64,000 nucleotides of DNA. Origin: Trueperaceae bacterium. Lineage in GTDB: Bacteria > Deinococcota > Deinococci > Deinococcales > Trueperaceae. The stretch's first letter is position 1. Each line of letters begins with the position of its first letter. The stretch covers positions 1,280,001 to 1,344,000 of the forward strand of contig OZ243927.1 in NCBI GenBank assembly GCA_965213925.1, in the 5' to 3' direction. The translations under genes were made by a program, and so were the position numbers. Under the pieces are notes generated by a model, which saw nothing but the letters and a program-made list of their open reading frames with translations, searched no databases and was not told where the DNA came from. This document shows, piece by piece, positions 9,117 through 18,032 of this stretch.

Positions 9117-9641
9117 GTGAGGTGCTTTATCGCCCTGCCCCTACCCGAAGAGGTCAAGGCGGAGTTGCGGCGCGTTCAGAGTGTTTTAGCACCGCAACTC
9201 CCTGAGAGGGCAGTGCGCTGGACGAAGCCGGAGCAGTTCCATCTCACGTTGGACTTTTTGGGCGAGCTGTCAGAGAACGAGGTCGAGGGGGTTAAAGGGC
9301 GGCTCGAGTCCCTTCATTTCTCCGCGTTCACGCTCAAGCTGGGCGTAGTAGAGAGCTTCGGGCGTCCAGTGAGGGTGCTCTTCGTTGACATTGCCGGAGA
9401 GACCAAAACCTTACGCGAACTGCAACAAGAGGTCGCGCTCAGTGGGAGTACGCAGCGGTTTCACCCTCATTTAACGCTGGCGAGGCTGCGCACCTCTCTC
9501 CCTCATCTGCAAGAGGTCGCGCGAGAAACCCAAGTCGAGCCACTTGCTTGGCAGGTCGAAGAGGTTCGGTTGGTGCAGAGTACGCTCACCCCTCAAGGCG
9601 CACGCTATACGGTGCTGCTCGAGGTCGGGCTCAGTCCTTAA
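9117..9641 (+). CDS. thpR: RNA 2',3'-cyclic phosphodiesterase (2H phosphoesterase)
   Basis: N-terminal RCFIAL and two HxT motifs (FHLTL, PHLTLAR). Confidence 0.9.
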   Translation: MRCFIALPLPEEVKAELRRVQSVLAPQLPERAVRWTKPEQFHLTLDFLGELSENEVEGVKGRLESLHFSAFTLKLGVVESFGRPVRVLFVDIAGETKTLRELQQEVALSGSTQRFHPHLTLARLRTSLPHLQEVARETQVEPLAWQVEEVRLVQSTLTPQGARYTVLLEVGLSP

Positions 9642-9806
9642 CTCGTTTACGCGCTGTGTGATGGTCGTTCTCGAGGAGCGTGTAGCGCCCGAAAGGGGCG
9701 GAGTCGGCGTCCTCACTTAGGGTGATCTTTGCTTAGCGACCCCTCTAGCGAACGCGCCGAGTTGGAACGCCTTTTAGAGTGACTTTTGTGAGGCTCGAGC
9801 CATGAG

Positions 9807-9836
9807 AAAGAGCGACTTATAAGGTCGCTCTTTTTT
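9807..9836. terminator. Bidirectional intrinsic terminator between thpR and the small peptide gene
   Basis: AAAGAGCGAC-TTATAAG-GTCGCTCTTTTTT hairpin between convergent genes. Confidence 0.75.
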
Positions 9837-9860
9837 ACGCCGTAAAACATAGCGTATGAA

Positions 9861-9989
9861 TTAACCACCCCAAGCGCTGCTTCTTCCGTCGGTCGAGGGT
9901 GACGAGCTTTGGTATTTGCCTGCGACGCTGGTGCCGAATCCGAGGCTCAAGAGGCTGACGGTGAGGGCGACGAGCATTTTCTTTTTCAT
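9861..9989 (-). CDS. Small secreted peptide, 42 aa (MKKKMLVALTVSLLSLGFGTSVAGKYQSSSPSTDGRSSAWGG); candidate signalling-peptide precursor
   Basis: Strong RBS (AAAAGGAGAGAATC-ATG), Sec-type signal peptide ending in SVA, and a terminator just downstream. The C-terminus matches the repeats in the neighbouring subtilase. Below the ORF-track size cutoff. Confidence 0.85.
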   Translation of the reverse strand: MKKKMLVALTVSLLSLGFGTSVAGKYQSSSPSTDGRSSAWGG

Positions 9990-10045
9990 GATTCTCTCCT
10001 TTTCGCGCCGGGGTTTCTTCCCTGGTTTGCTCTTATCTTAAAGAG

Positions 10046-10146
10046 CAAAGGTTGCTAAAGGGTTGCCAAAAAGGAGGCAAAAGGTTGCTTTTTTCGCACC
10101 GTCAAAAATAAAAAAATTCACAAGTTCAGCGCATGGCAACCTTTTT
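10046..10146. promoter_or_regulatory. Phased GGTTGC direct repeats plus one inverted copy in the divergent promoter
   Basis: GGTTGC at 10050, 10061 and 10083 (11-bp phase), a degenerate copy near 10073, and inverted GCAACC at 10136. A -10-like TAAGAT on the minus strand at 10040-10035. Confidence 0.55.
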
Positions 10147-10262
10147 GAACCGCACGGCCGGCGTGTGAGTTTTTTGTAAGAGGGCGTGCTCTAGGCTGAT
10201 GGGGCAGAAGTATCGGGTAGGGGGATAGCTTGAAACCAAGCCTCTGCCTCTAGGAGCGCTCT

Positions 10263-11939
10263 ATGTTCAACCGTCTTATCCTGTCAACCCCTTATACAAG
10301 GCGCGTGCTCTTGACGACTACGCTTGCGCTCTCGCTCGGCGGGTGCGGTCTCTCTCCGAGTGAGGACGCCCGTCCGCTCGGCGCTGACGTCCCCGATCCT
10401 CAGTACGCGCTCACCGTCGACCTCAGCGCCAACGATACGCTCACCGGTGTCGAAGCGGCGTATGGCGGCAAGGTGCTCGTCTGGGAGCCGGAAGCATTTG
10501 CGGTCGTAGGGGTGAACGAAAAAGTAGAGGGGCTACTCGAGACCAACGACGATGTCTTCTTGTTCGGTGGTGGGCGTGCGCGAATGGAGGGGCGTTCTTC
10601 CGCTTGGGCTGGTGGACGCTCATCCGCTTGGGCGGGCGGACGTTCTTCCGCTTGGGCTGGTGGACGCTCATCTGCTTGGGCTGGCGGGACCTACGCCTGG
10701 ATGCCTAAAAACACCTCCCTCTGGCAACAGGTTCGTCTGCAAGAAGGGCACGCGCTTGCTAGCAATTTGGGATACGGCGTCAAGGTTGCTGTTATTGATA
10801 CGGGCGTCGACCTCGAGCACCCGGCTTTAAGAGAGGCGTTAGCCCCAGAGAAAGAGTGGTGGGACTTCTATGACGGCGACGCCACGCCTCAAGAGGAGGG
10901 CGTTCTGGGCGAGGGAGGCTACGGACATGGTACCAACGTCGCGGGCATTGTCCGCCAAGTCGCGCCGCGCGCCACAATTCTTCCCATTCGCGTGCTCGGA
11001 CCTGGCGGCAGCGGCAACCTGACCGACGTCGCCTCGGCGATTCACTGGGCGGTGAAGATGAAGGCGGACGTCATCAACTTGAGTTTAGGGAGCGACGAAG
11101 AGGTCAAGGCGATCGAAGAGGTCATCGACACGGCGGTGAAAAAAGGCGTGCTCGTCGTCGCCTCGACGGGCAACACGGGCGACACGGCTGTGTCCTATCC
11201 GGCGCGCTCGGCGACGCGGGCAGAAACGGCTCCGGGGCGGCTCAGCGTGACGAGCGTCGATAACGCAGACGTCAAGTCCGACTTCGCGACGTACCGCGCT
11301 GAGGTCGAACTCTCCGCGCCCGGTGAGAACGTCTACAGTCCGGCTCCAGGGGAACGCTTGGCGGCTTGGAGCGGCACCTCGATGGCTGCGCCGATGGCGT
11401 CTGGCGCGCTCGCGCTCGCGCTCGGCGAGAAACTCAGCGTTAAGCGCAAAGAACTCGCCGAGGCGCTCAAAGCGCAAAGCTTTGACCTCTACGCCGAGGA
11501 AGATAACGCAGACTACGTCGGTCAGTTGGGCGAGGGGCGTTTAGACCTAGCTATCTTTTTAGAAGAGGTTGTCAAGCAGAAGAAGGGTAAAGGCAAAAAA
11601 GACAAAGACGAAGCAGGTCTCTCCTGCGAAGGAGGCGTAACGCGCCTGACGCTGCGCTATACGGGCTCGGATGATGAAGACATCCGCGTGGTCCAAAAGG
11701 ACGGCAAGGCGGTTCTCTTCGAGGGAGAAGTAGACCCTAATGAGACCTTCTCTTTTACGGGTGTTAAGGACGACGGCACGATGGGCAAAGAGATCACCCT
11801 TTACGAAGACGGTAAAAAGCGCGGCAAGTTGCGTACCGATTGCAAAAAACCCATCGGTCCTGGGTTGGTTGAGAAGAACTTCGAAGTGGTCTCTGGCGAG
11901 AGCTTAGGTGAACCGCTCGCCCCAGTGAGCAAAGAGTAA
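10263..11939 (+). CDS. S8 subtilisin-like serine protease lipoprotein with (GRSSAWAG)x4 repeats and a C-terminal Cys-flanked beta domain
   Basis: Lipobox LGGC; catalytic Asp in VAVIDTG, His in GHGTNVAG, Ser in SGTSMAAP; oxyanion Asn in STGN. Confidence 0.92.
   Translation: MFNRLILSTPYTRRVLLTTTLALSLGGCGLSPSEDARPLGADVPDPQYALTVDLSANDTLTGVEAAYGGKVLVWEPEAFAVVGVNEKVEGLLETNDDVFLFGGGRARMEGRSSAWAGGRSSAWAGGRSSAWAGGRSSAWAGGTYAWMPKNTSLWQQVRLQEGHALASNLGYGVKVAVIDTGVDLEHPALREALAPEKEWWDFYDGDATPQEEGVLGEGGYGHGTNVAGIVRQVAPRATILPIRVLGPGGSGNLTDVASAIHWAVKMKADVINLSLGSDEEVKAIEEVIDTAVKKGVLVVASTGNTGDTAVSYPARSATRAETAPGRLSVTSVDNADVKSDFATYRAEVELSAPGENVYSPAPGERLAAWSGTSMAAPMASGALALALGEKLSVKRKELAEALKAQSFDLYAEEDNADYVGQLGEGRLDLAIFLEEVVKQKKGKGKKDKDEAGLSCEGGVTRLTLRYTGSDDEDIRVVQKDGKAVLFEGEVDPNETFSFTGVKDDGTMGKEITLYEDGKKRGKLRTDCKKPIGPGLVEKNFEVVSGESLGEPLAPVSKE
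10590..10688 (+). repeat. Four tandem 24-bp coding repeats encoding GRSSAWAG
   Basis: Units such as GGACGTTCTTCCGCTTGGGCTGGT differ only at synonymous positions. Confidence 0.95.
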
Positions 11940-11967: not shown

Positions 11968-14010
11968 ATGTCCGCGCTAAGTCACAACTTTGCTGCTAGC
12001 TCTGTAACTGCGCCTGGAGCCGAAGTCGAAGAGTCGCTCGCTGACGCGGCGGCGGTGCTTGAACAGGACCCGGCGCGGACATTGGAGCTTGCTCACGGCG
12101 TACTCGGTGTATCGGCGAACCTTGCAGTGGCGGCGGAAGCCTCCTTGCTCATCGGCAAAGCGTACTATCAAAAGGGGCATTCAGCCGAAGCGCTGCGCCC
12201 ACTCCTTGAAGCCCACGCGCTGCTGACGGCTGAGGACGCGCAAGCCGCACAAAGCTCCCCGAGTGCGCTCGAGTGCGCTCTCATGCTAGGGCGTGCCCAC
12301 CGTGACCTTGCTCAGTTTGGCGACGCTGCGCGCTGGCTGGACGAAGCCTTAATATTGTCCCGAAGCATGAATAGCCCTTTGGAAGCCGAAGCTCTCAACC
12401 TCCTAGCGGGTGTAGTGGCTGAGAAAGGGGAGTACGGACGCGCGCTCGAGTATCTTAAAGACGCGCTCCCCATCGCCCAACGCCACGGCTTACGGGAGCG
12501 CCAAGCCAATATTTTCGACTACATCGGTCATATAGAATCCTTTCTCGGCAACTATCCGGGCGCTTTAGTGTCCTTGAAGCGAGCGTATGACCTGCTCCAA
12601 AGCGTCGCGCCAGGCTCGCGAAGTGCGATTGCCAACCTCATCAACTTAGGCAACCTCTACCAAGTCATGGGGCAAGACGAGCAGGCGCTCGCCTTTCTGC
12701 AGCGTGCGCGAAAGATTAGCCGCGCGGCGGAGGATACCGTTATGGAGGCGGCGGCGCTCAACAACTTAGCCAACCTCCATTACGACAGAAAGCAGTGGCG
12801 CGTAGCGCAAACTCGCTTCGAGGAGGCGCTCGAGCTTTCTCGTTACGTCAACAACCGGGCTTACGAAATCGACAACTTAGACGGTCTAGGACAGGTGCAA
12901 GTTGCACTAGGACACTTTGAGGACGCGCTCAAAACGCATAGGGCGGCGCTCTCTATCGCCAAGGATGTTGGCGATAGAGGAGGCGAGACGGACGCCCTAC
13001 TCAACTTGGGGCGGGACTACCTCGAGCTGAATCGTCCCGAACATGCGGCGCGCGCTTTAGCTGAAGGGCTCTCGCTCGCTGAGAACTTAGAACGTCTTAA
13101 ATCCGTCTACGAAGCGCACGAACTCCTCGCTAGGGCGTGTGAGGCGAACGGCGACCTGGCGAACGCGCTCTCCCACCAGCGCGAGTTTCACCGTTTGGAA
13201 AGAGCGCTTTTTAGCCGCGAGAGCGAGGAGAAGACGCGCCAGCTCACCGTGCAGTTCGAAGTCGAACGCGCCCGCCACGAAGCCGAAACGTACCGCTTGC
13301 GCACTCAGGTCGCGCAGGAGGCGCGGCGCGAAGCCGAAGCGGCCGTCGCGGAGCGCACCCTGGAACTCGAAGAGGCGCAGCTAGAGGTCGTCACGCGCCT
13401 CGCTCTGGCAGCGGAATACCGCGACGACGTCACCGGCGAGCACACGCGGCGCGTCGGCAGAAACGCCGCCGCCATCGCCTACGCTTTAGGCTGGTCCGAA
13501 GACGAGGTCAAGCTGATGTACACCGCCGCGCGGCTCCACGACGTCGGCAAGATCGGCATCAGCGACGCGGTTTTGCTCAAGCCCGATAAGCTCACCGAGG
13601 ACGAATTCGACCTCATCTGTCACCACACGGTGATCGGCGCGCGCATTTTGTCGGACGGGCGTTCGCAGCTTTTGCAGATGGCTGAAGAGATCGCCCTCGC
13701 CCATCACGAGCGCTGGAACGGGCAGGGCTACCCGTACGGGCTCGTCGGCGAGGCGATCCCCGTAACGGCCAGGATCGTCGCCGTCGCCGACGTGCTCGAC
13801 GCCCTCACGCATGAAAGGCCCTATAAAAAGGCGTGGTCCGTCGCGGAAACGCTCGCAGAGATCGAGCGGGGGAGCGGACGTCACTTCGACCCGCAGGTTG
13901 TGGCGGCGTGCTTGCGCGTCTTTGGCGAGGGTAAGCTTTCGCCCCTCGAGCCCCAAAGCCTAGCGGATACCTTGCGAAATTTATGCGAGGTGTTGGACAG
14001 GCGTTCCTGA
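11968..14010 (+). CDS. TPR-repeat + HD-GYP c-di-GMP phosphodiesterase
   Basis: About 400 aa of TPR-like helices (ALNLLAG, LINLGNLY, ALNNLANL, LDGLGQV, ALLNLGRDY), then EYRDDVTGEHTRRV, LHDVGKIGI and HHERWNGQGYP. No signal peptide or TM segment. Confidence 0.92.
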   Translation: MSALSHNFAASSVTAPGAEVEESLADAAAVLEQDPARTLELAHGVLGVSANLAVAAEASLLIGKAYYQKGHSAEALRPLLEAHALLTAEDAQAAQSSPSALECALMLGRAHRDLAQFGDAARWLDEALILSRSMNSPLEAEALNLLAGVVAEKGEYGRALEYLKDALPIAQRHGLRERQANIFDYIGHIESFLGNYPGALVSLKRAYDLLQSVAPGSRSAIANLINLGNLYQVMGQDEQALAFLQRARKISRAAEDTVMEAAALNNLANLHYDRKQWRVAQTRFEEALELSRYVNNRAYEIDNLDGLGQVQVALGHFEDALKTHRAALSIAKDVGDRGGETDALLNLGRDYLELNRPEHAARALAEGLSLAENLERLKSVYEAHELLARACEANGDLANALSHQREFHRLERALFSRESEEKTRQLTVQFEVERARHEAETYRLRTQVAQEARREAEAAVAERTLELEEAQLEVVTRLALAAEYRDDVTGEHTRRVGRNAAAIAYALGWSEDEVKLMYTAARLHDVGKIGISDAVLLKPDKLTEDEFDLICHHTVIGARILSDGRSQLLQMAEEIALAHHERWNGQGYPYGLVGEAIPVTARIVAVADVLDALTHERPYKKAWSVAETLAEIERGSGRHFDPQVVAACLRVFGEGKLSPLEPQSLADTLRNLCEVLDRRS

Positions 14011-14291: not shown

Positions 14292-17200
14292 ATGGCACGC
14301 ACCTACTACTTTCAACTAAAAGAAGACGACAGCTTAGAAATTCCAGTTTCGAGAGAGGCGCGGGAGCGCTACGGCTTTTCCGAAGACCTCTTCTCTGAGC
14401 ACGGCAACCTCATGCTCGCGGACTTTTCGGCCGCTCAGCGCGTGGCGCAGAGGATCAATGAAGTGCGCGATACGAAGCGCTACCCGCATTCAGCGGTCTC
14501 GGCGGGCGAACTCTACGCCGCCGGGCTCGTCCAGGAACTCTTGCGGCTCCTCGTCTCGCTCTACTTGCAAGAGACGGACGGCACTGTGGTCGAGCGGGCG
14601 TATGCTCACCTCGAGACGTCCCTAGGCGACGAGTTGGAGGGCACCTTAGAGCGCTACGCCCAAGACTTCCCCGCTAAGGTCGTCTATACGAATAAAAGGA
14701 CCATTAAGGAGTACCTCGCGGGTAGTTCCAAGAGCATCCCGCACCGCCAAATCGTCTTCGAAGGACTTTTGCTCCTGCGCATGGCGAACGAGAACCCGGC
14801 GATGGAGCGCTTCGTCGAACTTTTCGACGATGAAGGTCTGGAGCAGCACACCGTCTATAACGAGATCATCACGCAGTTGGAAACCTTCTTCGAAGATGAG
14901 CCCGGTTTCGGCGGCAAAAAGCTTTTAGACGTGCTGCGCGGACCCCTTCGTTCGCACCCGACCTCTTTGGACGCTCAGTTGGAGTATCTGCGCTCACAGT
15001 GGCCTGCGCTGAGCGAGGGACGTTTTTCTGGCTTGATGCGCCGCTTGATGCAGACTTTGGGCACCATCCAAGAGGAGCGCCGCGAGCGCTTCGGCGGCGG
15101 ACCCGGTCCGGCGCACGTCATCGACCCGAGAGCGGAATACGGCGTGACGGGCGCGTTCGAGCAGGTCGAGTACGAGCGCTTCTCGCCCGATTCGTCCTGG
15201 ATGCCCCGCGTCGTGATGCTCGCCAAAAGCACCTTTGTGTGGCTGGGGCAACTCTCGAGGTTCTACGGGCGCGACATCTCCCGCTTAGACCAAGTGCCCG
15301 ACGAAGAGTTGGACGAACTCGCTCGGCGCGGCTTCACAAGCTTGTGGCTCATCGGCTTGTGGGAGCGCAGCGCAGCCTCTAAAAAGATTAAAAACATGCG
15401 CGGCAACCCGGACGCGGTGGCGTCAGCCTACTCCCTGTACGACTACCAGATCGCCAACGATTTAGGCGGGCAAGAGGCGTACGACAACCTCAAGTGGCGC
15501 GCCTGGGAGCGCGGCATCCGCATGGCGTCGGACATGGTCCCCAACCACGTCGGCATCGACGGTCGCTGGGTCGTGGAGCACCCGGACTGGTTCTTGCAAC
15601 TGGGACACTCGCCCTACCCGAGCTACACCTTTAACGGACCTGACTTGTCCAACGACGACCGCGTCGGCATCTTCTTAGAGGACCACTACTACGACAACTC
15701 AGACGCCGCCGTCGTCTTTAAGCGCGTGGACTACCACACGAATAACGAGCGCTACATCTATCACGGCAACGACGGCACCTCGATGCCCTGGAACGACACG
15801 GCGCAGCTCAACTACTTAAACGCCGAGGCGCGCGAAGCCATCATCCAGACCATCCTGCACGTCGCGAGGCTCTCGCCCATCATCCGCTTCGACGCGGCGA
15901 TGACGCTCGCCAAGCGCCACATCCAGAGGCTCTGGTTCCCGGAGCCGGGCTCGGGCGGCGCGATTGCCTCGAGAGCGCAGTACGGCACGATGACGACAGA
16001 TGATTTCAACGCCGCCATCCCCGAAGAGTTCTGGCGCGAAGTCGTGGACCGCGTCGCCGAAGAGGTCCCCGACACGCTCCTCTTAGCCGAAGCCTTCTGG
16101 ATGATGGAAGGCTACTTCGTCCGCACGCTCGGGATGCACAGGGTCTACAACAGCGCTTTCATGCATATGTTCAAAGACGAGGACAACGCCAAGTACCGCA
16201 AATCGATCAAAAACGTTCTGGAGTTCGAGCCCAACATCCTAAAGCGCTACGTCAACTTCATGAGCAACCCCGACGAAGAGACCGCCATCGCGCAGTTCGG
16301 CTCCGACGACAAGTACTTCGGCGTCTGCACGGTGATGGTGACGATGCCGGGTCTGCCGATGTTCGGGCACGGTCAGGTCGAAGGGTTCGAAGAGAAGTAC
16401 GGCATGGAGTTCAAGAGCGCCAAGCGCGAAGAGAACCCTAACGGCTGGCTGATTGAGCGCCACTACCGCGAAGTGTTCCCGCTGATGCACCGCCGCGAGC
16501 AGTTCGCGGAGGTGGAGAACTTCCTCCTTTATGACGTGCATACTGAGAACGGCGTCAACGAGGACGTGTACGCCTACTCGAACCGCGTGGGCGACAGAGC
16601 CTCGCTCGTGGTATTCAACAACAAGTTTTCGCAAGCCAAAGGCTGGATCAAAGACGCCGCGCCGCACGCCACCAAAGAGGGCGGGATGCAGCCCTCGCGT
16701 GACCTCAAAGCTGGGCTCGGTCTCCGGGCGCACAATGACGACTTCACGATTTTCCGCGACCAGGTATCGAACTTGGAGTTCATCCGCCGCTCGGCGGGCC
16801 TTGCGAACGGCTTTTACTTGGAGCTGGAGGCGTTCAAATATCAAGTCTTTTTAGACTTCCGCGAGGTGGAAGACTATGACGGCAACTACGCCCGTATTCA
16901 CGACCAACTCGGCGGACGCGGCGTCGCTAGCATCGAAGAAGAGATTGCGTCCTTACGCCTGCAACCGCTCCACGAAGCCTTCCGCGAGGTCTTGAGTAAA
17001 GAGGTCATCCTCGGCTTGCGCGGCGTAGACCCCAAAGCGCAGAGCGAACTGCAAGCGGCGCTGCCGGAGCGCTATGCGCGGTTCATGGAGAAGACGAGGG
17101 ACTTCACCCCTGAAGACGGTGTAAAAGGGGAGACCGAACCGCTCTTAAACCGCTTCACCGTCGAACTCAGCCACCTGCTCCCGCTACCCTCGTTAGAGAC

Positions 17201-18032
17201 GCTTGCGCCCAAGTTCAAAAAGGGCGGAGAGGTCGAGCAAACCCTCTCCGATAACCTCACCCCAGAGATGAGCGGCAGCCTCTACGCCTGGCTTAGCGTG
17301 CACGGGCTCGGCCACTTTGCAGGCGACGGTTCGAACGAGGCGAGCTTAACGGCGCTGCGGCGCTGGCGCTTGGATAGGGTGCTCGAGGGTGTCTTTAGCG
17401 ACTTGGGCTTACACGCCGAGCGCGTGTTACACATGGTCAAACTCCTGGTGCGCTACAAAAACTGGTACGAGTTAGAGGACGAGGATAAGAAACCCGCCGA
17501 GAAACTCCTGGAACTCCTCCTAGACGACGAGGAGGCTTACGCCTTCTTAGGTGTCAACGAGCACGAAGGGGTGCGCTACTACAATAGGGAGTCCTACCGC
17601 GAACTCACCGCGCGCCTCGCCTGCGTCTCGATTCTCAATTTAAGCGTTTTGAAAGCAAAAGAGGTTGACGCGGGGCTGAAAAAGATTCACCAGGGACTTA
17701 AAGACTTCGCGGTGGCGGAAGCGCGCTCGGAGTACCAGGTGGATAAGCTTTTAGAGGTTAAACCAACGTCTAAAACGACGAAGAAAACAGCGAAGACCTC
17801 TAAGAAGTCAACGACGAAGAAGGCGGCTGCGAAAAAGCCTGCCGCAAAAAAGTTCACTAAAAAAGCCGATGCTGAAAAAGCGGATACTAAAACCGCGACG
17901 AAGAAAATAGCGACTAAGAAGACGGCTGCGAAGAAAACCAGCGCGAAGGCTAAGAAAGAGGAGGGGGGCTCGAGTAAGACTAAATCTGCCTCAACAGACA
18001 AAGAGAAATCCGCCAGCTCTTCGTCGGATTAA
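14292..18032 (+). CDS. Large GH13 alpha-amylase-family glycoside hydrolase with a Lys/Ala-rich C-terminal tail
   Basis: DMVPNH, IRFDAAM (nucleophile), LLAEAFW (acid/base), NPDE and TMPGLPMFGHGQ. Confidence 0.85.
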   Translation: MARTYYFQLKEDDSLEIPVSREARERYGFSEDLFSEHGNLMLADFSAAQRVAQRINEVRDTKRYPHSAVSAGELYAAGLVQELLRLLVSLYLQETDGTVVERAYAHLETSLGDELEGTLERYAQDFPAKVVYTNKRTIKEYLAGSSKSIPHRQIVFEGLLLLRMANENPAMERFVELFDDEGLEQHTVYNEIITQLETFFEDEPGFGGKKLLDVLRGPLRSHPTSLDAQLEYLRSQWPALSEGRFSGLMRRLMQTLGTIQEERRERFGGGPGPAHVIDPRAEYGVTGAFEQVEYERFSPDSSWMPRVVMLAKSTFVWLGQLSRFYGRDISRLDQVPDEELDELARRGFTSLWLIGLWERSAASKKIKNMRGNPDAVASAYSLYDYQIANDLGGQEAYDNLKWRAWERGIRMASDMVPNHVGIDGRWVVEHPDWFLQLGHSPYPSYTFNGPDLSNDDRVGIFLEDHYYDNSDAAVVFKRVDYHTNNERYIYHGNDGTSMPWNDTAQLNYLNAEAREAIIQTILHVARLSPIIRFDAAMTLAKRHIQRLWFPEPGSGGAIASRAQYGTMTTDDFNAAIPEEFWREVVDRVAEEVPDTLLLAEAFWMMEGYFVRTLGMHRVYNSAFMHMFKDEDNAKYRKSIKNVLEFEPNILKRYVNFMSNPDEETAIAQFGSDDKYFGVCTVMVTMPGLPMFGHGQVEGFEEKYGMEFKSAKREENPNGWLIERHYREVFPLMHRREQFAEVENFLLYDVHTENGVNEDVYAYSNRVGDRASLVVFNNKFSQAKGWIKDAAPHATKEGGMQPSRDLKAGLGLRAHNDDFTIFRDQVSNLEFIRRSAGLANGFYLELEAFKYQVFLDFREVEDYDGNYARIHDQLGGRGVASIEEEIASLRLQPLHEAFREVLSKEVILGLRGVDPKAQSELQAALPERYARFMEKTRDFTPEDGVKGETEPLLNRFTVELSHLLPLPSLETLAPKFKKGGEVEQTLSDNLTPEMSGSLYAWLSVHGLGHFAGDGSNEASLTALRRWRLDRVLEGVFSDLGLHAERVLHMVKLLVRYKNWYELEDEDKKPAEKLLELLLDDEEAYAFLGVNEHEGVRYYNRESYRELTARLACVSILNLSVLKAKEVDAGLKKIHQGLKDFAVAEARSEYQVDKLLEVKPTSKTTKKTAKTSKKSTTKKAAAKKPAAKKFTKKADAEKADTKTATKKIATKKTAAKKTSAKAKKEEGGSSKTKSASTDKEKSASSSSD

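Follow-up and report, generated by a model that had tools for sequence, protein, structure and literature searches.

A predicted exported peptide in Deinococcota that ends in the repeat unit of its neighbouring subtilase

The small gene and its intergenic region

The window analysed here is a 64,000-nucleotide (nt) stretch of a Trueperaceae bacterium genome (phylum Deinococcota; contig OZ243927.1, positions 1,280,001 to 1,344,000), and our subject is a small open reading frame (ORF) on its minus strand at 9861-9989, together with two genes that lie beside it. The ORF runs from an ATG at 9987-9989 to a TAA stop codon at 9861-9863 and encodes 42 amino acids (aa), MKKKMLVALTVSLLSLGFGTSVAGKYQSSSPSTDGRSSAWGG. 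Divergent from it on the plus strand is the gene of a 558-aa S8 subtilase lipoprotein (10263-11939), followed on the same strand by a gene (11968-14010) for a protein with tetratricopeptide repeats (TPRs) and an HD-GYP domain, which starts about 2 kb from the small ORF, beyond the protease. The small ORF has a strong ribosome-binding site, AGGAGAG, which is at 9994-10000 on the minus strand, 5 nt ahead of the ATG, and is the same in both congeners.

By its sequence features the product divides into a signal peptide (aa 1-23, minus strand 9921-9989) and a predicted exported pro-peptide (aa 24-42, minus strand 9864-9920), GKYQSSSPSTDGRSSAWGG. The signal peptide has an MKKK n-region, a 15-residue hydrophobic core with a mean Kyte-Doolittle hydropathy of 2.05 and S-V-A|G at positions -3/-1, and the product looks exported through a Sec-type signal cleaved by signal peptidase. 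A Ser/Pro/Thr-rich spacer separates the signal from the C-terminal octapeptide GRSSAWGG (aa 35-42, minus strand 9864-9887), which is a copy of a repeat unit in the neighbouring subtilase. Scans of the peptide against Pfam and NCBIfam gave no match. The protein itself already has an entry in the protein collection, and the copy of a congener carries NCBI/ENA sources.

A first-pass annotation, made from the letters of the DNA, had put a 42-aa ORF at exactly this location, and all of the elements it named in the product are present. It had called the C-terminal motif distinctive, and GRSSAW[AG]G does occur, in six frames across the genome, four times in the protease, once in the small ORF and nowhere else. 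The shorter GRSSAW is found seven times in the genome's 9,491,848 six-frame residues: four in the adjacent protease, one in the small ORF and two elsewhere, which we attribute to chance. The same annotation had proposed looking for other short ORFs with a terminal Trp motif and for conservation in relatives; only the small ORF has a signal-like start among the genome's 91 open frames of 25 aa or more with a terminal W[AGS][GSD], the ORF is kept in 3/3 genomes of the genus, with one ortholog in each, and its layout recurs in ten related peptides.

The pattern of change between congeners is that of a coding sequence. Relative to its ortholog in the congener G001, the small ORF differs at 3, 3 and 11 sites at codon positions 1, 2 and 3, respectively, and of the codons changed between this genome and a congener, 10 have synonymous and 6 nonsynonymous changes. 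Conservation across the three congeners extends to the ribosome-binding site and the entire intergenic region. From these comparisons we conclude that the small ORF is a real gene.

On its 3' side, between the small ORF and a convergent LigT-like gene, a hairpin at 9807-9836 was read directly from the sequence (stem 9810-9816 with 9824-9830, a 7-nt loop, and A and T runs at the flanks). It is kept in the congener G002 through changes on both arms and was not listed by a consensus scan. The hairpin is a probable bidirectional terminator, in which case the small ORF would be monocistronic. On the 5' side, the divergent promoter region holds four copies of GCAACC(C/T)TTT at 10047-10145, found with Tandem Repeats Finder, three in the same orientation (10047-10055, 10057-10066 and 10079-10088) and one inverted (10136-10145). 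This array is conserved in all three congeners and is missing from all three paralogous modules of the genome described below. A regular expression for the site matches 93 times genome-wide, some sites being counted twice, and 10047-10145 is the only place with at least two distinct sites inside 150 nt. The array is a candidate operator. A sigma-70 promoter scan of 9500-10400 returned none, and no convincing -35/-10 pair could be placed. Within the small ORF's 5' leader, a short GC-rich hairpin at 10007-10026 directly precedes the ribosome-binding site and is likewise conserved in the three congeners.

A repeat unit common to the peptide and the subtilase

The subtilase begins with a lipoprotein signal (lipobox Cys28), followed by a pro-domain at about aa 45-101, a catalytic domain at about aa 146-444 (Pfam PF00082 at aa 171-404) and a low-confidence C-terminal region. 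C28, D179, H222 and S373 are invariant in 27 homologues. Between pro-domain and catalytic domain are four tandem GRSSAWAG units (aa 110-141, plus strand 10590-10685), which have the same protein sequence and differ at synonymous sites. They join directly (…AWAG|GRSSAW…), with no dibasic KR or RR sites between them. The free peptide thus carries one copy of the unit and the protease linker four.

An AlphaFold2 (AF2) model of the subtilase has a mean predicted local distance difference test (pLDDT) score of 74.6. The pro-domain (aa 48-94) is modelled with block means of 82-96 and the catalytic domain (aa 146-444) mostly at >90, while the repeats (aa 103-143) fall at <30 and appear disordered; the C-terminal region (aa 445-558) is also low. 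In Foldseek the model aligns over 423 columns to unprocessed pro-subtilisin E (3whi_A) with a target-normalised template-modelling (TM) score of 0.78, and this superposition identifies the N-domain as a subtilisin-type propeptide and the repeats as an insert at the pro/mature junction. The homologue alignment shows a conserved N-x-D-x-F motif closing the pro-domain, which we take to be the usual propeptide C-terminus. By homology to subtilisin BPN', in an alignment that pairs residue 169 of the subtilase with mature residue 22, the mature N-terminus is placed near residue 148, just past GTYAW146-M147. On this reading of the end of the pro-domain and of the mature N-terminus, the repeats would have to be excised during activation.

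The C-terminus of the peptide changes with the repeat of the protease. The peptide ends in GRSSAWGG and the protease repeat is GRSSAWAG (four copies) in this genome; the pairs are GRSNVWAG with GRSNVWAG (four copies) in G001 and GRSSAWAG with GRSSAWAG (three copies) in G002. In all three congeners the R-S-S/N residues are encoded as AGA-AGC-AGC/AAC in the peptide and as CGY-TCN-TCN/AAY in the repeats. Since the codons differ, the match between peptide and repeat is held at the protein level and does not reflect a recent DNA copy or gene conversion. The G001 protease ortholog (L021:6869-8538) is 91% identical to that of the window, although frame shifts near aa 83 and near aa 508 spread it over three reading frames.

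A second case comes from a genome of another family, G108, which encodes a 38-aa secreted peptide, MKKTILALLALALVGAAFASPTVDTTKQTNGSRSIWAS, behind an AGGAGG sequence. The last eight residues of this peptide are GSRSIWAS, against two GSRSVWAS units in the only repeat protease that G108 has, so that 7/8 residues match, the unusual -AS ending included. The two genes are on different contigs, and no protease is near the peptide gene. Judged by sequence, G108 is an independent second instance of peptide/repeat co-variation. Because peptide end and protease repeat change together in two unrelated lineages, the small gene provides a rare handle on specificity. These comparisons make the link between the peptide and the neighbouring protease much stronger than the first-pass annotation could see, because the C-terminal motif is the very unit that the protease itself repeats four times, and it co-varies with that unit.

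Beyond these genomes, a word-based protein search found three further related peptides, and seven matches at E ≤ 0.001 came from an exhaustive profile search against 1.84 billion representatives. Six of these are peptides of 42-46 aa; the seventh, a 624-aa protein, was set aside. In the alignment, 10/10 peptides share an MKKK or MKK start, a hydrophobic core, an A-x-A-like site with small residues kept at -3/-1 (SVA, SFA, AFA) and a variable spacer. All ten close with G-x3-4-W-[AGS]-[GD], with Trp exactly three residues from the end, and the family's terminal units include GARAWAG, GYSAWSD, GRSNIWAG and GRSSIWSG. A unit of 7-8 residues is thus conserved at the exact C-terminus, and in the genus and in G108 it co-varies with the protease repeats. 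Metagenome contigs gave no match to a search with the peptide alignment and 0 matches to a degenerate DNA pattern for the family, and a search of genome contigs for related loci with a single protease as query returned nothing.

The Trp-repeat subtilase and its cyclic di-GMP neighbour across the phylum

Subtilases of this kind follow a common order of lipoprotein signal, pro-domain, Trp repeat, a conserved PENT..W.QI motif and catalytic domain. Across the phylum they were found in 143/301 sampled genomes, a single genome having as many as 11 matches, and in 29/102, 88/112, 0/14, 15/62 and 10/10 genomes of the families f1 to f5, respectively; relatives come from Truepera/Trueperaceae, Deinococcus, Meiothermus/Thermaceae and Deinococcales. 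The unit varies among orthologues and paralogues (GRSSIWAG, GSVSAWAG, GKISMWAG, GESTVWAE, GWATWGS, GYNAWAG and GSLGLWAD), in 3-7 copies. The gene counts that follow use the fetched loci, a criterion of three Trp units and a neighbour window of 700 nt.

A GGDEF or HD-GYP gene lies within 700 nt of 26/33 Trp-repeat S8 genes. Among the 28 such adjacent genes, a TPR region is detectable by BLAST in 21, and 21 are on the same strand as the protease. Four of the seven repeat proteases that lack a neighbour are at or near contig ends (two in L025, and L045 and L047); in the other three loci the gene is 711 nt away (L036), a TPR protein is present with no output domain detected (L044), or there is none (L054). 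Of the ten S8 genes that fail the three-Trp criterion, four have a neighbour, three of these carrying two units. A GGDEF/HD-GYP neighbour was found for 0/4 distant S8 genes without repeats (L057-L059), and for neither L056, which has two units, nor a partial gene in L060. The TPR-cyclic di-GMP (c-di-GMP) enzyme is the only recurrent neighbour, and no modifying enzyme is conserved beside the protease in these loci. Literature searches on this pairing, and on peptide or c-di-GMP signalling in Deinococcota, yielded no account of Trp-repeat subtilases paired with TPR-c-di-GMP enzymes, and a further search returned only work on RRNPPA systems. The protease and c-di-GMP module is widespread and apparently undescribed.

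This genome has four such modules. The one in the window has a TPR-HD-GYP protein, and the other three each adjoin a TPR-GGDEF gene and have the units GGRNAWS (C1:1271544-1275079, locus L042), GGRSAWS (C1:3669772-3673273, L041) and GGENVWS (C1:1806912-1810301, L043). The first of these paralogous modules ends about 5 kb ahead of the start of the window. None of the three has a free peptide.

In the TPR-HD-GYP protein (Pfam TPR_12 and HD_5), a helix of 90 residues links about 10 TPRs (aa 17-393) to an HD-GYP domain of the c-di-GMP phosphodiesterase type. This protein is the candidate receptor and output of the module. The c-di-GMP proteins of the modules lack a signal peptide and any convincing membrane segment, which places them in the cytoplasm. 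In Foldseek the AF2 model (mean pLDDT 86.6) is nearest to the TPRs of LGN/Pins, with the HD-GYP domain matching 4mcw at 40% identity; NprR is at rank 42 (target-normalised TM 0.68) and Rap at rank 49 (TM 0.63). By sequence (phmmer), LGN and kinesin light chain are closest to the TPR part, and RapH is a weak match (E 5.7e-4). Model and sequence together indicate a superhelix of the peptide-groove type whose resemblance to RRNPPA receptors is no greater than its resemblance to other TPR superhelices.

Several further loci were noted in passing. Downstream of the TPR-HD-GYP gene, here (14292-18032) and in G002, is a gene for a protein of 1246 aa (1261 aa in L022) with a weak match to an alpha-amylase catalytic domain and a long Lys/Ala/Thr/Ser-rich tail at its end. 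Tandem repeat subtilases with differing units, two to four per contig, occur in L025 (G003:C433; GSKAWAD and GNSAWAS), G197:C94 and G212:C3. A G002 paralogue (L034:6794-8248) has five GARTWAG units and, close to the N-terminus, 12 EVP repeats in a row. In a Deinococcaceae metagenome-assembled genome (MAG), a protease (L077:3731-4903) carries four AGAFVT units at the same position, with Phe for Trp, and is followed by a 1040-aa HD-GYP protein. S8 proteases with 2-3 short Trp units at the corresponding place before the catalytic domain (GRSWSI, GHSWSV, GNGWSV) are also present in Acidobacteriota MAGs of Pyrinomonadaceae, Blastocatellia and Chloracidobacterium (L076, L079, L081, L082, L084, L086, L092, L096 and L126); a search by regular expression saw no GGDEF/HD-GYP neighbour within 4 kb of these.

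Possible roles of the peptide

We propose that the 42-aa peptide is exported and cut by the neighbouring protease, whose repeat peptide it thereby supplies from a second gene, and that the Trp peptide signals through the TPR-HD-GYP protein to c-di-GMP. On the sequence evidence this reading could equally well prove right or wrong. Signal peptidase I would cut after SVA and leave a 19-residue pro-peptide in the envelope. The self-activating subtilase would excise its linker and cut each unit, most simply after Trp, to give several identical peptides of about eight residues; the free peptide, separately transcribed, would be a second substrate of the same protease and, minus its last two residues, would have the same C-terminal core (…GRSSAW) as the linker product. 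After uptake, the Trp peptide would be sensed by the adjacent cytoplasmic TPR-HD-GYP protein, or by TPR-GGDEF proteins in the paralogous modules, resulting in a change in c-di-GMP. Cleavage, the position of the cut, uptake and TPR binding are steps that we infer.

A number of observations weigh against this reading, the plainest being the rarity of the free peptide. A credible one was found in only 4/364 genomes of the phylum. The profile search of these genomes gave strong matches limited to this genus; of the 12 weak matches, the five in short open frames were read and one, that of G108, was real, while nine further weak places listed fall in frames of 274-906 aa. No credible copy of the small ORF was found in 108 other genomes of the family, where one marginal match (E 0.008) is inside a 905-aa frame. 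A small ORF matching the local unit is in the fetched flanks of only 3/33 repeat modules, all one orthologous trio. Matches to the unit with two mismatches near L028, L037, L041 and L042 were rejected as chance, as they lack a signal peptide and three are not C-terminal. A search with the pattern G-x4-W-[AS]-x-stop in five genomes gave counts no higher than those of a reversed-pattern control and recovered only the G108 control; a credible free peptide was found in 0/4 of the others (G022, G017, G029 and G008). Four candidate places in G022 and G017 did not include a secreted peptide, and the matches in G029 and G008 were judged on the printed 27-mers only. As the free peptide is missing from most modules, the module works without it, and by this distribution the peptide is an accessory of the module.

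Other difficulties concern the protease and the proposed receptor. Trp is present at the pseudo-unit of the predicted junction in only about one third of homologues, and cleavage after Trp is thus not established. AF2 docked no repeat into the active site of the subtilase; the repeats were merely disordered. As assembled, the G001 protease gene is interrupted by two frameshifts, which are either an assembly error or very recent decay that would make it a very young pseudogene. The TPR domain is closer to eukaryotic LGN and kinesin light chain than to Rap or NprR, a likeness that may come from the TPR_12 repeat type alone. With the TPR enzymes in the cytoplasm and the protease and peptide outside, uptake has to be assumed, and no transporter is conserved in the module. 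The genome does encode 13 SBP_bac_5 (Opp/Dpp-type) binding proteins, which speaks to import capacity only.

The main alternative, that the peptide regulates the protease in trans, as a decoy substrate or product-like competitive inhibitor delaying or tuning zymogen activation or substrate access in the envelope, is unlikely. In its favor, the peptide motif is common to the protease linker and co-varies with it, the two genes are transcribed divergently from one conserved control region whose repeat array is unique, and a module that in most lineages works without the free peptide is what would be expected of an accessory regulator. However, 19 residues without a folded I9 domain should bind weakly, and the two residues past Trp are kept in 10/10 variants, as in a scissile P1'-P2' pair and unlike a product end. 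The G108 peptide gene is unlinked to its protease, and regulation in trans leaves unexplained both the protein-identical repeat units and the conserved c-di-GMP neighbour. The first-pass annotation had suggested a related role, a propeptide mimic that inhibits or chaperones the protease. The mimicry stands insofar as the peptide resembles the repeats of the protease linker, but it does not extend to the folded pro-domain. An I9 propeptide is a folded alpha/beta domain of about 70-80 residues; the mature part of the peptide is 19 residues with no Pfam match and cannot be an I9-type chaperone, and the protease already has a confidently modelled pro-domain of its own.

If the signal were left uncleaved, the product would be a tiny membrane-anchored protein of type II, and the shared motif in its 19-residue tail would recruit the lipoprotein protease to the membrane or position it there. 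The positive N-terminus and 15-residue hydrophobic core would suit such an anchor, but this core is short for a stable membrane span and the small -3/-1 residues are kept in the family, making an anchor improbable. We find it very improbable that the peptide is a precursor of a bacteriocin or other ribosomally synthesised and post-translationally modified peptide (RiPP), with the N-terminus as leader, the Trp unit as modified core and the subtilase as leader or follower peptidase. The family does combine a conserved N-terminus with a variable core, and QhpE and PatA/PatG, which are RiPP-type peptidases, are among the protease's best NCBIfam matches. These matches, however, place the protease outside the dedicated families, at 99 bits versus a cut-off of 165 for QhpE and 50.9 versus 421 for the cyanobactin PatA/PatG, the N-terminus is an ordinary Sec signal, and no conserved modifying enzyme was seen in the fetched loci. 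Finally, a chance ORF, or a functionless relic left when part of the protease gene was duplicated, would fit the short length and the want of a Pfam or NCBIfam match, but is scarcely credible given the coding-type substitutions, the conserved ribosome-binding site and terminator, codons unlike those of the repeats, co-variation in two lineages, ten family members and the single hit among 91 Trp-ending frames.

The peptide-to-c-di-GMP reading we propose has partial precedents. The proteases that mature Phr peptides, subtilisin, Epr and Vpr, are all S8 enzymes. Peptide quorum sensing through cytoplasmic TPR proteins is known almost only in Bacillota and the phages of Bacillota, with transcription factors or Rap phosphatases as output. 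In the RRNPPA cassettes described in PMC11343458, a propeptide is exported by Sec and cut outside the cell, and its C-terminal pheromone of 5-10 aa reaches a TPR receptor after import by Opp; the propeptides are 50-120 aa and can hold 1-4 tandem pheromone copies, and the pheromone gene is directly up- or downstream of the receptor gene. Relative to that account, the locus described here is similar in its small, apparently Sec-exported pro-peptide with a C-terminal unit, its S8 protease and cytoplasmic TPR protein, and in having several paralogous cassettes with different peptides per genome. It differs in that its peptide, at 42 aa, is below the size range given there. In contrast to Rap-Phr, the tandem copies are part of the protease that would process them, the candidate receptor has HD-GYP or GGDEF in place of a helix-turn-helix or Rap effector domain, and the free peptide gene adjoins the protease, on the other strand, rather than the receptor, and is absent from most modules. 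The phylum is Deinococcota, and homology of the peptide or receptor to RRNPPA members is not established. The Phr/PapR-type layout given in the first-pass annotation is therefore borne out for the Sec signal, spacer and C-terminal unit but not for RRNPPA membership, as no RRNPPA receptor is adjacent and the TPR protein is fused to HD-GYP; "Phr-like" fits the mechanism, not the family.

Pro-subtilisin E (3whi) provides a second comparison, in which pro-domain and S8 catalytic domain superpose, the pro-domain ends in N-x-D-x-F and autoprocessing at the junction is expected, but the disordered insert of about 40 residues with Trp units, the lipoprotein signal and a separate gene for an extra unit copy have no counterpart. 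In yeast alpha-factor and the Kex2-processed repeat proteins of fungi, tandem units, held identical by selection at the protein level, are released by a subtilisin-family protease. The four protein-identical units of the linker (3-7 in homologues) and the single one in the small ORF recall this arrangement; here, in contrast, dibasic sites are absent, a single polypeptide is both precursor and protease, and the system is bacterial. Kinesin light chain, which binds Trp-acidic motifs, and LGN/Pins have the nearest solved TPRs by sequence and fold and bind extended peptides in the inner groove, but they are eukaryotic scaffolds without the enzymatic output of the module's TPR protein.

What would set this module apart is that its peptide units are embedded in a protease zymogen and that its output is the synthesis or breakdown of c-di-GMP. 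On a wider view, which we hold tentatively and think somewhat doubtful, Deinococcota would have a peptide-to-c-di-GMP communication system of their own, with units in the subtilase activation linker, a fixed number of Trp peptides released by each maturing protease molecule, TPR-GGDEF and TPR-HD-GYP proteins as receptors, paralogous modules as private channels, and the 42-aa gene as a lineage-specific extra transmitter under its own operator. Such a system, if real, would name a ligand class for many orphan TPR-GGDEF and TPR-HD-GYP enzymes and would supply octapeptides for testing.

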